This document shows positions 2,656 through 46,515 of a stretch of DNA of 64,000 nt, piece by piece. The DNA lies in assembly GCF_058153355.1 (NCBI RefSeq), contig NZ_CM177019.1. One strand, given 5' to 3'. The notes under the pieces were generated by a model. That model saw only the letters and a list, made by a program, of their open reading frames with translations. It had not been told where the DNA came from and did not search any database. Within the stretch, counting starts at the first letter, position 1; every line of letters starts with the position of its first letter. Both the position numbers and the translations under genes were made by a program.

Positions 2656-3507
2656 TTAAGACTGCTTGGACATCGCAGCAACTTCTGCTGCAAAGTCAGT
2701 CTCAACTTTCTCGATGCCTTCACCTACTTCGAAGCGGATGAAGCCAGTCACTTCAGCGTTATGCTCTTTCAGCAGCTGACCAACAGTTTTGCTTGGTTCC
2801 ATAACGAACGGCTGACCGGTCAGAGAAACTTCGCCGGTGAATTTCTTCATGCGGCCTTCAACCATTTTCTCTGCGATTTCTTTCGGCTTACCAGACTGCA
2901 TCGCGATATCCAGCTGAACCTGGTATTCTTTCTCTACCACTTCAGCGGAAACGTCTTCCGGTTTGATGAATTCTGGTTTGCTTGCAGCAACGTGCATAGC
3001 GATGTGTTTAACCAGCTCTTCGTCAGCGCCTTTAGCAGCAACCAGAACGCCGATACGCGCACCGTGCTGATAAGAACCCAGAACGTCGCCTTCCAGCGCA
3101 GCAACGCGGCGAATGTTGATGTTTTCACCGATTTTCGCTACCAGCGCAACACGTTCTTCTTCGAACTGTGCTTTCAGAACTTCAACGTCAGTGATTTTGC
3201 CAGCAACAGCTGCGTCCAGAACTTTGTCTGCGAACGCCTGGAAACCAGCGTCTTTTGCAACGAAGTCAGTCTGGCAGTTAACTTCCAGAATGATGCCGTA
3301 GTTGCCGTCGATTTTGGTTTTGATCACGCCGTCAGCAGCAACGTTGCCTGCTTTTTTCGCTGCTTTGATAGCACCGGACTTACGCATGTTTTCGATTGCC
3401 AGCTCGATGTCGCCGTTAGCTTCAGTCAGTGCTTTTTTGCAATCCATCATGCCTGCGCCAGTACGCTCACGCAGCTCTTTTACCAGGGATGCGGTAATTT
3501 CAGCCAT
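2656..3507 (-). CDS. tsf: elongation factor Ts
   Basis: 283-aa [30 protein letters not shown]..., EF-Ts; synteny with rpsB. Confidence 0.97.
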
Positions 3508-3561
3508 TCTAAAATCCTCGGAGATGTGATCTGCCCGGCGTTAAACCGCACAGATATAAAA

Positions 3562-3590
3562 GTGAAAAAGGGGGCCATATGCAGGCCCCC
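3562..3590 (-). terminator. rpsB-tsf intercistronic attenuator/terminator hairpin
   Basis: Inverted repeat gggggcc-atatgca-ggccccc followed on the minus strand by a T-run; positioned between rpsB stop and tsf start. Confidence 0.55.
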
Positions 3591-3639
3591 TAACCAAACG
3601 TGTACTACCTGGTCTATAAGGGCTCTCCCCCTTCATATT

Positions 3640-3745
3640 TCGCGCCGCAGATGCGTTGTCTTCGCTCGCTCATCCCGGTCACTTACTGATGTAAGCTCCC
3701 GGGAATTCTCGAGCTTGCCGCCTTTCTGCAACTCGAACTAATTTG
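3640..3745 (-). repeat. degenerate ERIC-like intergenic repeat in rpsB-tsf spacer
   Basis: About 85 percent identity over ~70 nt to the reverse complement of the ERIC copy at 45371-45440 (core cacttactgatgtaagctcc vs cacttacttatgtaagctcc). Confidence 0.55.
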
Positions 3746-3764
3746 GGGGAGTTATCAAGCCTTA

Positions 3765-4712
<948 letters not shown>

Positions 4713-18560: not shown

Positions 18561-18766
18561 TCATACAAATAAGATGACGGCATTTTACTCGCACGTTCCA
18601 TGAAAATCCTTTGCAAAGCGTAATGTTTCAAATGCACAAAACTTTTATACTCTAAGAAATCAGGATTGTACCAGTACAAGCAACCTGACGTTTGACGAGT
18701 ATTTAACTTGTTATGAATAACATAGAATAGCAGCCATTCACTTTTTCTACGAATCAGGAACCCTCC

Positions 18767-20047
18767 ATGAGTAAGTCTGAAAATCTATACAGCGCAGCGC
18801 GCGAGCTGATCCCTGGCGGTGTGAACTCCCCTGTTCGCGCCTTTACTGGCGTGGGCGGCACTCCACTGTTTATCGAAAAAGCGGACGGTGCTTATCTGTA
18901 CGATGTTGATGGCAAAGCCTATATCGATTATGTCGGTTCCTGGGGGCCGATGGTGCTGGGCCATAACCATCCGGCGATCCGCAATGCCGTGATTGAAGCC
19001 GCCGAGCGTGGTTTAAGCTTTGGGGCACCGACCGAAATGGAAGTGAAAATGGCGCAACTGGTGACCGAACTGGTCCCGACCATGGATATGGTGCGCATGG
19101 TGAACTCCGGCACTGAAGCGACAATGAGTGCCATCCGCCTGGCCCGCGGTTTTACCGGTCGCGACAAAATCATTAAATTTGAAGGTTGTTACCACGGTCA
19201 CGCTGACTGCCTGCTGGTAAAAGCCGGTTCTGGCGCACTCACGTTAGGCCAGCCAAACTCGCCGGGCGTTCCGGCAGATTTTGCCAAACATACCTTAACC
19301 TGTACTTATAACGATCTGGCTTCTGTACGCGCCGCGTTTGAGCAATACCCGCAAGAGATTGCCTGTATTATCGTCGAGCCGGTGGCAGGCAATATGAACT
19401 GTGTTCCGCCGCTGCCAGAGTTCCTGCCGGGTCTGCGTGCGCTGTGTGACGAATTTGGCGCGTTGCTGATCATCGATGAAGTGATGACCGGTTTCCGCGT
19501 GGCGCTGGCTGGCGCGCAGGATTATTACGACGTGGTGCCAGACCTCACCTGCCTGGGCAAAATCATCGGCGGTGGAATGCCGGTAGGCGCATTCGGTGGT
19601 CGTCGTGATGTGATGGATGCGCTGGCCCCAACCGGTCCGGTCTACCAGGCGGGTACGCTTTCCGGTAACCCGATTGCGATGGCAGCCGGTTTCGCCTGTC
19701 TGAATGAAGTCGCGCAGCCGGGCGTTCACGAGACGCTGGATGAGCTGACAACACGTCTGGCAGAAGGTCTGCTGGAAGCGGCAGAAGAAGCGGGAATTCC
19801 ATTGGTCGTTAACCACGTTGGCGGCATGTTCGGTATTTTCTTTACCGACGCCGAGTCCGTGACGTGCTATCAGGATGTGATGGCCTGCGACGTCGAGCGC
19901 TTTAAGCGTTTCTTCCATATGATGCTGGACGAAGGTGTTTACCTGGCACCGTCAGCGTTTGAAGCGGGCTTTATGTCTGTGGCGCACAGCATGGAAGATA
20001 TCAATAACACCATCGATGCTGCACGTCGGGTGTTTGCGAAGTTGTAA
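18767..20047 (+). CDS. hemL: glutamate-1-semialdehyde 2,1-aminomutase
   Basis: 426-aa [52 protein letters not shown]..., class III aminotransferase. Confidence 0.97.
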
Positions 20048-44498: not shown

Positions 44499-45350
44499 GT
44501 GTTAATTATCGAAACCCTGCCGTTGCTGCGTCAGCAAATTCGCCGCCTGCGAATGGAAGGCAAACGCGTGGCGCTGGTGCCTACTATGGGTAACCTGCAC
44601 GATGGTCATATGAAGCTGGTCGACGAAGCCAAAGCCCGCGCCGATGTGGTCGTCGTCAGTATTTTCGTTAACCCAATGCAGTTTGACCGCCCGGAAGATC
44701 TGGCTCGCTACCCACGCACCTTGCAGGAAGACTGCGAGAAGCTAAACAAACGTAAAGTGGATCTGGTTTTCGCTCCCTCGGTAAAAGAGATCTATCCGAA
44801 CGGTACAGAAACCCACACCTATGTCGATGTTCCAGGCCTTTCCACCATGCTGGAAGGTGCCAGCCGTCCAGGACATTTTCGCGGCGTATCGACCATCGTC
44901 AGCAAACTGTTCAACCTGGTCCAGCCGGACATCGCCTGCTTCGGTGAAAAGGATTTTCAGCAACTGGCGCTGATCCGCAAAATGGTTGCCGACATGGGCT
45001 TTGATATTGAGATTGTCGGAGTGCCGATTATGCGCGCTAAAGACGGTCTGGCGCTCAGTTCCCGTAACGGCTATCTGACGGCGGAACAACGTAAAATTGC
45101 GCCGGGTCTGTACAAGGTCTTAAGTTCAATTGCCGACAAATTGCAGGCTGGCGAACGGGATCTCGATGAAATTATTGCTATTGCCGGGCAAGAACTGAAT
45201 GAAAAAGGTTTCCGTTCCGATGATATTCAGATTCGCGATGCCGACACCTTGCTGGAAATCGCTGAAAACAGCAAACGAGCTGTGATTCTGGTAGCCGCCT
45301 GGCTTGGCGATGCTCGCCTGATCGACAACAAAATGGTCGAACTGGCGTAA
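44499..45350 (+). CDS. panC: pantothenate synthetase
   Basis: 283-aa ORF (GTG start at 44499) [41 protein letters not shown]... Confidence 0.96.
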
Positions 45351-45355
45351 TACTT

Positions 45356-45482
45356 ATACTCTAAATAATTCAAGTTGCAGGAAGGCGGCAAGCGAGTGAA
45401 TCCCCAGGAGCTTACATAAGTAAGTGACTGGGGTGAGCGAACGCAGACGCAGCACATGCAACTTGAAGTATGACGAGTATAA
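45356..45482 (+). repeat. ERIC (enterobacterial repetitive intergenic consensus) element
   Basis: Contains gtgaatccccaggagcttacataagtaagtgactggggtgagcgaacgcagacgcagcacatgcaacttgaagtatgacgagtata, matching the ERIC core inverted repeat; lies in the panC-rpnC spacer. Confidence 0.8.
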
Positions 45483-45570: not shown

Positions 45571-46515
45571 TTAGTTAATTAGCTTATCAATCTCAGCAAG
45601 AGGTAAATTTGCCATCTCTGCAACGTCTTCCCGAGACATTCCTTTACTCAGAAGACGCAGGGCGAATTCTTGCCTTTCCTCCTGTCTTCCCAGCTGAATC
45701 CCCTTCTCAATCCCCTTCTCAATCCCCTTCTCAATCCCCTTCTCAATTCCCTTCTCAATTCCCTTCTCTTCAAACCACTGCGCCAACGTCATCATAGACT
45801 CCCCTCCCGTTTCCCTGTCTCTCACCACACCATAAAACAAATCCGCTTGTTCAGTATGACCGCGTTGCAGCATATAGTTTTGCATGGCAACTAACTGACT
45901 TCCGCTAGTGTACCCTTCGTCAATCAGCGTGACCAGTTGCTCCAGCAATAACATTAAGTCGCGCTGGCGAATATGTTTTTGCAACAGTTCGAGAATCGCA
46001 ATCCGCCGATGTTGCATGATTTCGTCATCCGGTGTGATAGTGATATCCACCAGCGGGAAAGGACTGTTATAGACGCGTCGCGCCAGCTCCGGCGAGTAAA
46101 ACATATCAAACCAGCACATTGAGAGTGGATAAGGCGTGGCCTCGCCCTGATAAAACAAAATCGGCACCACCAGCGGCAGCTTATCGTGGTCAGCCTCCAG
46201 ATGCCGGTGCATGGCGGCAATAGAATAACGCATCATACGAAACGCCATTTTTTTGTCCGGCTTGCTTTGGTGTTCAATCACAACATGTAGATAGCCCGTA
46301 TTACCCTGCATTTGCACGGAATAGAGCACGTCAGTGCTGTGCCCTTTCAGGCTTTCTTCAATAAAACTCCCCGACTCAAGATGCAGCGTGTCGAGGTCAC
46401 ACAGTTCGCGTAGCTCCGCTGGCAAATGGATATCCAGAAAGTCGCGAGCCGTTTCCACGTGCATTAAAAATTGTTTAAACACCGCATCATGCGGTGTGGT
46501 ACTCGGTGCATCCAT
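45571..46515 (-). CDS. rpnC: recombination-promoting nuclease Rpn family (YhgA-like, PD-(D/E)XK transposase_31)
   Basis: 314-aa ORF MDAPSTTPHDAVFKQFLMHVETARDFLDIHLPAELRELCDLDTLHLESGSFIEESLKGHSTDVLYSVQMQ...; position between panC and panD as for yadD/rpnC; carries an (EKGI)6 repeat. Confidence 0.88.
   Translation of the reverse strand: MDAPSTTPHDAVFKQFLMHVETARDFLDIHLPAELRELCDLDTLHLESGSFIEESLKGHSTDVLYSVQMQGNTGYLHVVIEHQSKPDKKMAFRMMRYSIAAMHRHLEADHDKLPLVVPILFYQGEATPYPLSMCWFDMFYSPELARRVYNSPFPLVDITITPDDEIMQHRRIAILELLQKHIRQRDLMLLLEQLVTLIDEGYTSGSQLVAMQNYMLQRGHTEQADLFYGVVRDRETGGESMMTLAQWFEEKGIEKGIEKGIEKGIEKGIEKGIQLGRQEERQEFALRLLSKGMSREDVAEMANLPLAEIDKLIN
45697..45768 (-). repeat. in-frame 12-bp tandem repeat (6 copies) inside rpnC
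   Basis: aatccccttctc x4 then aattcccttctc x2 on plus strand, encoding EKGIEKGIEKGIEKGIEKGIEKGI on the minus strand. Confidence 0.95.

Follow-up and report, generated by a model that had tools for sequence, protein, structure and literature searches.

Does a diverged repeat element lodged between the genes for ribosomal protein S2 and elongation factor EF-Ts help to set the ratio at which the two proteins are made, or is it carried along in their mRNA as a passenger? The question was raised by a sequence-only reading of a 64,000-nucleotide stretch of DNA (NCBI RefSeq assembly GCF_058153355.1, contig NZ_CM177019.1; hereafter the window), which had noticed an ERIC-like sequence in the rpsB-tsf spacer and proposed that an old, ERIC-derived structure may form part of the regulatory RNA governing the S2:EF-Ts ratio. 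ERIC repeats, or IRUs, are MITE-like imperfect palindromes of ~127 bp that owe their prominence mainly to PCR typing, and what they do biologically is still poorly defined. In the window, rpsB (3765..4490, minus strand; S2, 241 aa) was identified from the ORF list, its translation and the RefSeq annotation of identical E. coli records, and ends with a TAA stop codon at 3765-3767 that is directly followed by a second in-frame TAA. The tsf gene (2656..3507, minus strand; EF-Ts, 283 aa) starts with the ATG at 3505-3507, ~10 nt 5' of which lies the Shine-Dalgarno sequence GAGGA. Because both genes are on the minus strand, coordinates fall in the 5' to 3' direction of their mRNA; between them lies a spacer of 257 nt (3508..3764). 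The rpsB-tsf region was matched at an identity of at least 99% in 5424 of 5426 complete E. coli genomes, which identifies the window as E. coli DNA, and K-12 MG1655 carries a spacer of identical length at 190600..190856, where the annotation of NC_000913.3 records no repeat. Control of the operon is attributed to S2 autoregulation at the 5' leader, t44/tff (reviewed in PMC10931766), and stepwise termination along tff-rpsB-tsf has been reported in long-read work (PMC8848933). This leader RNA was also recovered in the window, at 4518..4604 on the minus strand, where the Rfam t44/tff model reaches 83.5 bits in cmscan (gathering score 44); the K-12 annotation also includes tff.

The spacer segment is a genuine, full-length, diverged ERIC (IRU) miniature inverted-repeat element. 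In a blastn search within the window, its core (3658-3743) matched a canonical ERIC copy (45362-45448) over 86 nt at 83.7% identity (E=6.6e-22), the next-best match having an E value of 5e-4, and local alignment of the spacer's reverse complement with this copy, which lies downstream of panC, was ungapped over the same 86 nt. The resemblance first noticed, ~70 nt at ~85% identity to 45371-45440, was thus real and slightly too short: it reaches past the 3640-3745 originally noted, and the whole element occupies ~3625-3758. Aligned end to end, the spacer ERIC and the canonical copy agree in 98 of 133 columns (73.7%). In practice, V_AS5 from Rfam works as a model of ERIC and is matched over its full length by both copies, with 49.8 bits by the canonical one and with 24.7 bits, at 3752..3629, by the one in the spacer. 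The ERIC1R and ERIC2 primer sequences, validated by exact matches at both sites in the panC copy (45355-45479), are found with three mismatches each (19/22) in the spacer copy. Searched with the spacer ERIC, E. coli genomes show related places at a median of 11 each, which marks the spacer copy as a member of a dispersed repeat family and not a chance palindrome. That the similarity is a coincidence of short palindromes has next to no probability, being ruled out by the length and significance of the blastn match, the full-length match to V_AS5 and the number of related places.

Two nested segments can be delimited. The ERIC proper, in mRNA sense, is placed at 3629..3752 (minus strand) by blastn, V_AS5, the primer sites and the dispersed copies, and it is contained in a 134-nt segment at 3625..3758 (minus strand) that, in alignments of long and short E. 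coli alleles, takes the place of 10 nt, ACGCTCGTAC. With its 124-134 nt, the element forms one long irregular hairpin in MFE and consensus folds. It resembles the known ERICs in its length, its long imperfect hairpin, its conserved core (19/22 at each primer site) and its membership of a dispersed family, as well as in being intergenic and co-transcribed and in adjoining a stop codon, here inside the rpsB-tsf operon. It differs from them in matching the canonical copy at no more than the end-to-end identity given above, in extra CCCC/GGGG in the outer arms and in having no recognisable TA duplication. At the left end, TA-ACTC resembles the canonical TA-TACTC; at the right end, GAGAG stands without a TA, which an old, decayed junction would fit. 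The junctions are not those of a clean insertion, because 10 ancestral nucleotides were replaced. A small ORF of 19 codons on the mRNA strand of the ERIC (ATGAGCGAG...TAG) was also considered and dismissed as non-coding, since GAGTGA in Salmonella leaves just 3 codons of it.

How is the element embedded in the spacer RNA? The predicted order on the mRNA is a ~150-nt hairpin consisting of the ERIC on a basal stem (hairpin 1), a second hairpin, a terminator, a tsf-proximal hairpin and the tsf Shine-Dalgarno sequence, and the whole spacer folds with -108.9 kcal/mol (z-score -6.2). The basal stem of hairpin 1 is formed by a 5' arm at 3758..3765 (AUAAGGCU), which takes in the final base of the rpsB stop codon, and a 3' arm at 3616..3624 (AGCCCUUAU), both on the minus strand and both present in MFE and consensus folds; alignments show the 5' arm to be kept in ERIC-less species. 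Hairpin 2 (3592..3614, minus strand; GACCAGGUAGUACACGUUUGGUU) is supported by folds and alignments and conserved from Escherichia to Photorhabdus. It is followed by the intrinsic terminator that is taken to act as the rpsB-tsf attenuator (3557..3591, minus strand; tail UUUUUCACUUUU), the only site that the terminator scan found on the minus strand, with an 8-bp stem at 3591..3569, seven of whose eight pairs are G-C, a 7-nt loop and a scan-reported tail of TTTTCACTTT. This G+C-rich hairpin with its T-rich tail is conserved across Enterobacterales and keeps its position from Escherichia to Photorhabdus. The stepwise termination reported for the operon is indirect evidence that transcription partly stops here in vivo. 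The scan thereby recovered the hairpin and T-run that had been noted at 3562-3590, and the ERIC does lie, as the sequence-only reading had placed it, between the rpsB stop codon and this terminator. Between the terminator and the tsf ribosome-binding site, folds place a further, tsf-proximal hairpin (3529..3555, minus strand; AUCUGUGCGG...CCGGGCAGAU). The 3' arm of the ERIC contains an A/U-rich internal loop, AAAUAUGAA.

Part of this RNA already has an Rfam entry. RF02798, the Shigella sRNA CssrA, matches 3570..3679 on the minus strand over the entire model (1-111/111), and its 136.6 bits in cmscan are well over the gathering score of 93 (E=4.9e-29). The match takes in the 3' half of the ERIC, the 3' arm of hairpin 1 and hairpin 2, and it extends through the terminator stem, where it stops exactly. 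In large part, CssrA is thus made up of an ERIC arm and the rpsB-tsf attenuator; its family description mentions neither that the 5' half is an ERIC arm nor that the 3' end is the attenuator. Could the ERIC then be the 5' module of a functional sRNA, released by an RNase or started from a promoter within the ERIC, and ending at the attenuator? Such an RNA would end in a terminator hairpin and a U-tail, as is typical of sRNAs derived from 3' UTRs. A ~110-nt band was detected by Northern blot in S. flexneri, and the authors predict that the RNA has its own start site (PMC3071730). However, in that work the 3' end is taken from terminator prediction and the 5' end, computed from the band size, is unmapped; Table 1 of the same paper labels the locus map/rpsB (arrows <- -> ->), and the Rfam model matches the rpsB-tsf spacer instead. 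Our search of 3400-3900 found no sigma-70-like promoter, and we rejected a promoter in the ERIC as the start of either CssrA or a tsf transcript. Furthermore, the ERIC part of the RNA is absent from a quarter of the E. coli genomes, and CssrA is without a known target or phenotype. We therefore consider a functional sRNA built on the ERIC quite unlikely, even with the strong model match and the reported band in its favour.

The proposal we set out from gives the ERIC hairpin a different role, as an integral part of the intercistronic regulatory RNA that tunes attenuation or tsf translation and hence the S2:EF-Ts ratio. It draws on the proximity of the two structures, since the ERIC lies ~30 nt upstream of the terminator on one and the same transcript, and on the retention of the element since before the split of Escherichia and Salmonella, with changes that preserve its structure. 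We compared partition-function folds of the long, ERIC-containing allele and of a short, ERIC-less E. coli allele, each including the last 30 nt of rpsB and the first 40 nt of tsf. The pair probability of the terminator stem was 0.999-1.0 in both alleles, and the pairing profiles of hairpin 2 and of the stretch from the Shine-Dalgarno sequence to the AUG agreed to two decimals, with a single exception (0.82 vs 0.81). In neither MFE nor centroid structures did the ERIC pair with the terminator or with the ribosome-binding site of tsf, the probabilities being equal between the alleles, and no mutually exclusive structures of the riboswitch or antiterminator type were predicted to link the ERIC to either of them. 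As far as thermodynamics tells, the ERIC is predicted to be structurally insulated from the rest of the spacer, and its presence is predicted to leave the fold of the attenuator unaffected. Thermodynamic folding is silent on co-transcriptional kinetics, RNA polymerase pausing and RNase access, and this counts as a point against regarding the ERIC as a passenger.

The short allele itself came to light because only 4094 E. coli genomes covered at least 80% of the query. The long allele, defined by an ERIC match of at least 95%, is present in 4094 of the 5426 complete genomes, and the short one in 1327 (24.5%). The short spacer is 134 nt long, carries its 10 nt where the long allele has the 134 nt of 3625..3758 and reads ...AAUAAGGC ACGCUCGUAC GAGCCCUUAU...; both basal arms are kept in the long allele. 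In the short allele, the hairpin is AUAAGGC-AC-GCUC-GUAC-GAGC-CCUUAU, and outside this apex the spacer is identical to that of K-12. Strains with the short allele include CFT073, IAI39 and O145:H28 (RM13514), the spacers of CFT073 and O145:H28 being identical; K-12, C600, DH10B, O157:H7, O111:H8 and 042 carry the long one. CFT073 belongs to phylogroup B2, IAI39 to F, 042 to D, K-12 to A and O157:H7 to E, and the short allele therefore looks typical of the B2/F branch, with O145:H28 as at least one exception.

Where does the short allele come from? It is not a deletion derivative of the long one, as homologues of its 10-nt apex and of its GCUC/GAGC stem are present in the hairpin of Enterobacter, Klebsiella, C. 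koseri, Yersinia and Photorhabdus. Nor was it copied from another locus of the same genome: the 37-mer across its junction occurs once per genome, at rpsB-tsf only, and the 1327 genomes with the short allele are the only ones to have it. Candidate origins are a small allelic replacement from another species, an old intergeneric transfer of the spacer and a long-lived polymorphism. On one further reading, the ERIC would be a working module, an RNase entry or processing site that alters the stability of the rpsB part of the message and releases CssrA, and the B2/F lineages would have swapped in the ancestral short hairpin from another species in its place. We give this only a slim chance; if it were true, the S2:EF-Ts stoichiometry, or one small RNA, would distinguish major lineages of E. 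coli. The window's own long allele departs from those of K-12 and the other sampled Escherichia by an A-to-T change at 3741 (AAATTAG vs AAAATAG), which breaks an A-U pair in the outer stem of the ERIC, and by a T-to-C change at 3540, where the tsf-proximal hairpin has its loop. Among the complete E. coli genomes, the best match to its ERIC is 99.2%.

To what extent is the element conserved in related species? At least six Enterobacterales loci from an EF-Ts search of contigs, together with cluster members and GlnD homologues, provided the relatives; P0123 was left out, as its contig ends before rpsB. An ERIC with the same junctions is present in K-12, O157:H7, E. albertii (two loci) and two more Escherichia loci, and also in three Salmonella enterica loci (L084, L085 and L098) and the Salmonella-like L095. 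Every sampled Enterobacterales genome outside Escherichia and Salmonella lacks an ERIC at rpsB-tsf: spacers of 116-149 nt are found in C. koseri and related Citrobacter (134 nt), K. pneumoniae, two lineages within Enterobacteriaceae (L090-L092 and L103), Enterobacter sp. Ag1 and Bisph1, Klebsiella sp. BIGb0407, Superficieibacter, Yersinia and Photorhabdus. Conservation of the element across the family thus holds for Escherichia and Salmonella, and fails in the other sampled genera as well as in 24.5% of E. coli. The ERIC-less relatives align with E. coli at the basal stem behind the double stop codon, hairpin 2, the terminator and the tsf-proximal hairpin, while the top of hairpin 1 varies in length from genus to genus, from nothing (Superficieibacter) to 4 bp. 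These shared elements and the varying top indicate that the short form is ancestral and that the ERIC was inserted at the apex of hairpin 1, where the variability between genera points to a tolerant landing site. In one of the Escherichia loci ('Shigella sp. FC2125' and related contigs; L087:1201-1935), rpsB has lost 1 nt close to its end, and the resulting frameshift gives an S2 of 244 aa and a new stop codon deeper in a spacer that, with its ERIC, is otherwise K-12-like.

The identical insertion and junctions in Escherichia and Salmonella also show that the ERIC is old, as had been supposed. Its differences track the species order, with 5/134 between E. coli and E. albertii, 10/134 between E. 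coli and Salmonella and 13/134 between E. albertii and Salmonella, which would fit vertical inheritance from a time when Escherichia and Salmonella had not yet split. The 7.5% divergence of the ERIC between E. coli and Salmonella is lower than that of the fourfold sites of rpsB (12.2%) and tsf (28.3%). Within Escherichia, the comparison of E. coli with E. albertii yields 5 differences in the ERIC vs 0 in the other ~115 nt of the spacer, a sign that constraint is weaker on the ERIC than on the attenuator core.

The short E. coli allele keeps an apex of the ancestral type though E. albertii, the other Escherichia and Salmonella carry the ERIC. For the history of the two alleles, the loci L001, L104 and L106 were compared with the window, L093 (E. 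albertii), L084 (S. enterica) and L096. A single-locus neighbour-joining tree of rpsB+tsf, which is poorly resolved, groups Escherichia with C. koseri in 127 of 200 bootstraps and with Salmonella in 1 of 200, so that C. koseri, with its short spacer, falls with Escherichia and not with the outgroups. In the remainder of the spacer, by contrast, E. coli differs from Salmonella at 6 of 117 positions vs 14 of 117 for C. koseri. Taken with the ancestral apex, this disagreement between the grouping of the flanking genes and the spacer distances suggests an allelic replacement or a transfer of the spacer.

Has selection maintained the ERIC hairpin as an RNA structure? A consensus fold of 10 long alleles (8 distinct) retains it. 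The fixed differences between Escherichia and Salmonella comprise a double change at columns 50/124 that turns A-U into G-C, the joint loss of one C and one G in the outer stem (CUCCCCC/GGGGGAG to CUCCCU/GGGGAG), two wobble-preserving changes, one pair-creating change (column 132) and three in loops; none of the fixed Escherichia/Salmonella differences in the ERIC hairpin breaks a pair. Statistically, covariation support is weak: a single pair is changed on both sides, and the observed score was reached by 25 of 500 shuffles; with 8 distinct sequences, divergence is too small for the test to be decisive.

Template switching within a quasi-palindrome can also yield paired changes. The element might accordingly be strictly neutral, its structure-preserving differences arising at the DNA level and not from selection on the RNA. 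The only double change and the only paired indel could each have arisen in a single template-switch event, the ERIC evolves faster than the remaining spacer (the 5 vs 0 differences to E. albertii), and single strains do carry pair-breaking changes, namely the A-to-T at 3741 in the window and a G-to-A in one E. albertii. Against this, the E. coli/Salmonella divergence of the ERIC stays below that of the fourfold sites of both flanking, highly expressed genes, and the element has been retained for long. Strict neutrality thus appears very unlikely to us. The weak covariation also bears on the ERIC as an integral part of the attenuator: together with the unchanged attenuator module in the 24.5% of E. 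coli and in all other sampled genera that lack the ERIC, and with the absence of predicted cross-pairing and the matching pairing probabilities of the two alleles, it leaves the proposed contribution to the S2:EF-Ts ratio unsupported, and we rate such a role as rather unlikely.

In our view, these observations are best explained by an ERIC that the 3' region of rpsB tolerates as a structural passenger, stacked on an older stem-loop and unneeded for attenuation, and on the strength of the folds and comparisons we hold this to be probably correct. Given its lack in a quarter of E. coli and in most related genera, it is probably an addition that the attenuator can do without. In the sequence of events that we propose, the ERIC would have inserted long ago into the top of the conserved stem-loop that starts at the rpsB stop codon. 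Co-transcribed in sense with the rpsB-tsf mRNA, it is predicted to form a ~135-nt self-contained imperfect hairpin on the ancestral stem AUAAGG/CCUUAU. The functional core of the spacer would lie downstream and be older than the ERIC, comprising hairpin 2, the attenuating terminator and the tsf-proximal hairpin, which are predicted to fold the same either way. At most, the ERIC may modulate the processing or the 3'-end stability of the rpsB part of the message, by way of RNase access or the blocking of exonucleases; any such effect on RNA stability or processing is put forward by analogy. The ERIC would also supply the 5' part of the ~110-nt CssrA RNA that ends at the attenuator. Two observations speak against a mere passenger: the hairpin-compatible differences, combined with a divergence of the ERIC below the synonymous one, hint at some constraint, and a stable RNA with a computed 5' end inside the ERIC has been reported in Shigella.

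Finally, we would like to place the rpsB-tsf ERIC into the context of other repeats found in bacterial operons. REP elements reportedly act as intercistronic mRNA stabilisers, as Higgins et al. are said to have proposed in 1982. The likeness consists in a repeated palindrome between differentially expressed cistrons that forms a stable hairpin 3' of the upstream cistron. However, the ERIC belongs to a separate repeat family, and the differential expression of rpsB and tsf would already be explained by the true intrinsic terminator that adjoins the repeat. Another parallel may be offered by Yersinia, where co-transcribed ERICs alter upstream mRNA levels via an RNase E site, according to the account of De Gregorio et al. 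2005 given in PMC3184786. The rpsB-tsf copy shares with these the closeness to an upstream stop codon, the position within an operon transcript and an A/U-rich loop in the 3' arm.

Among the papers available in full text, a literature search for ERIC together with rpsB and tsf returned nothing relevant. In kind, the finding is ordinary: the repeat family is a known one, K-12 has the copy at this position, and Rfam already holds a family that covers part of it. What lends it weight is that the ERIC sits inside an essential, much-studied translation operon and appears to have survived there since before the split of Escherichia and Salmonella. The natural long/short polymorphism is a useful by-product, as the absence of the ERIC in about a quarter of E. 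coli genomes, including CFT073, provides a ready natural experiment: comparing the two spacer alleles would directly test what a co-transcribed ERIC does to attenuation, mRNA decay and the S2:EF-Ts balance.

Two further members of the family were observed in the window. The canonical ERIC at 45355-45479 lies between panC (44499..45350, plus strand) and an rpnC-like ORF (45571..46515, minus strand) and is absent from K-12 MG1655. Compared with K-12, it is a clean 125-nt segment with a duplicated TA, the window reading ACT-TA-[TACTC...GAGTA]-TA-ACTGG where K-12 reads ACT-TA-ACTGG, and it looks like a textbook polymorphism of E. coli in which a MITE was inserted or excised. A mini-ERIC of ~52 nt (18646-18697; TATACTCTAAGAAATCAGG...TTTGACGAGTAT) retains both ERIC termini without the central core and lies in an intergenic position upstream of a hemL-like ORF (18767..20047).
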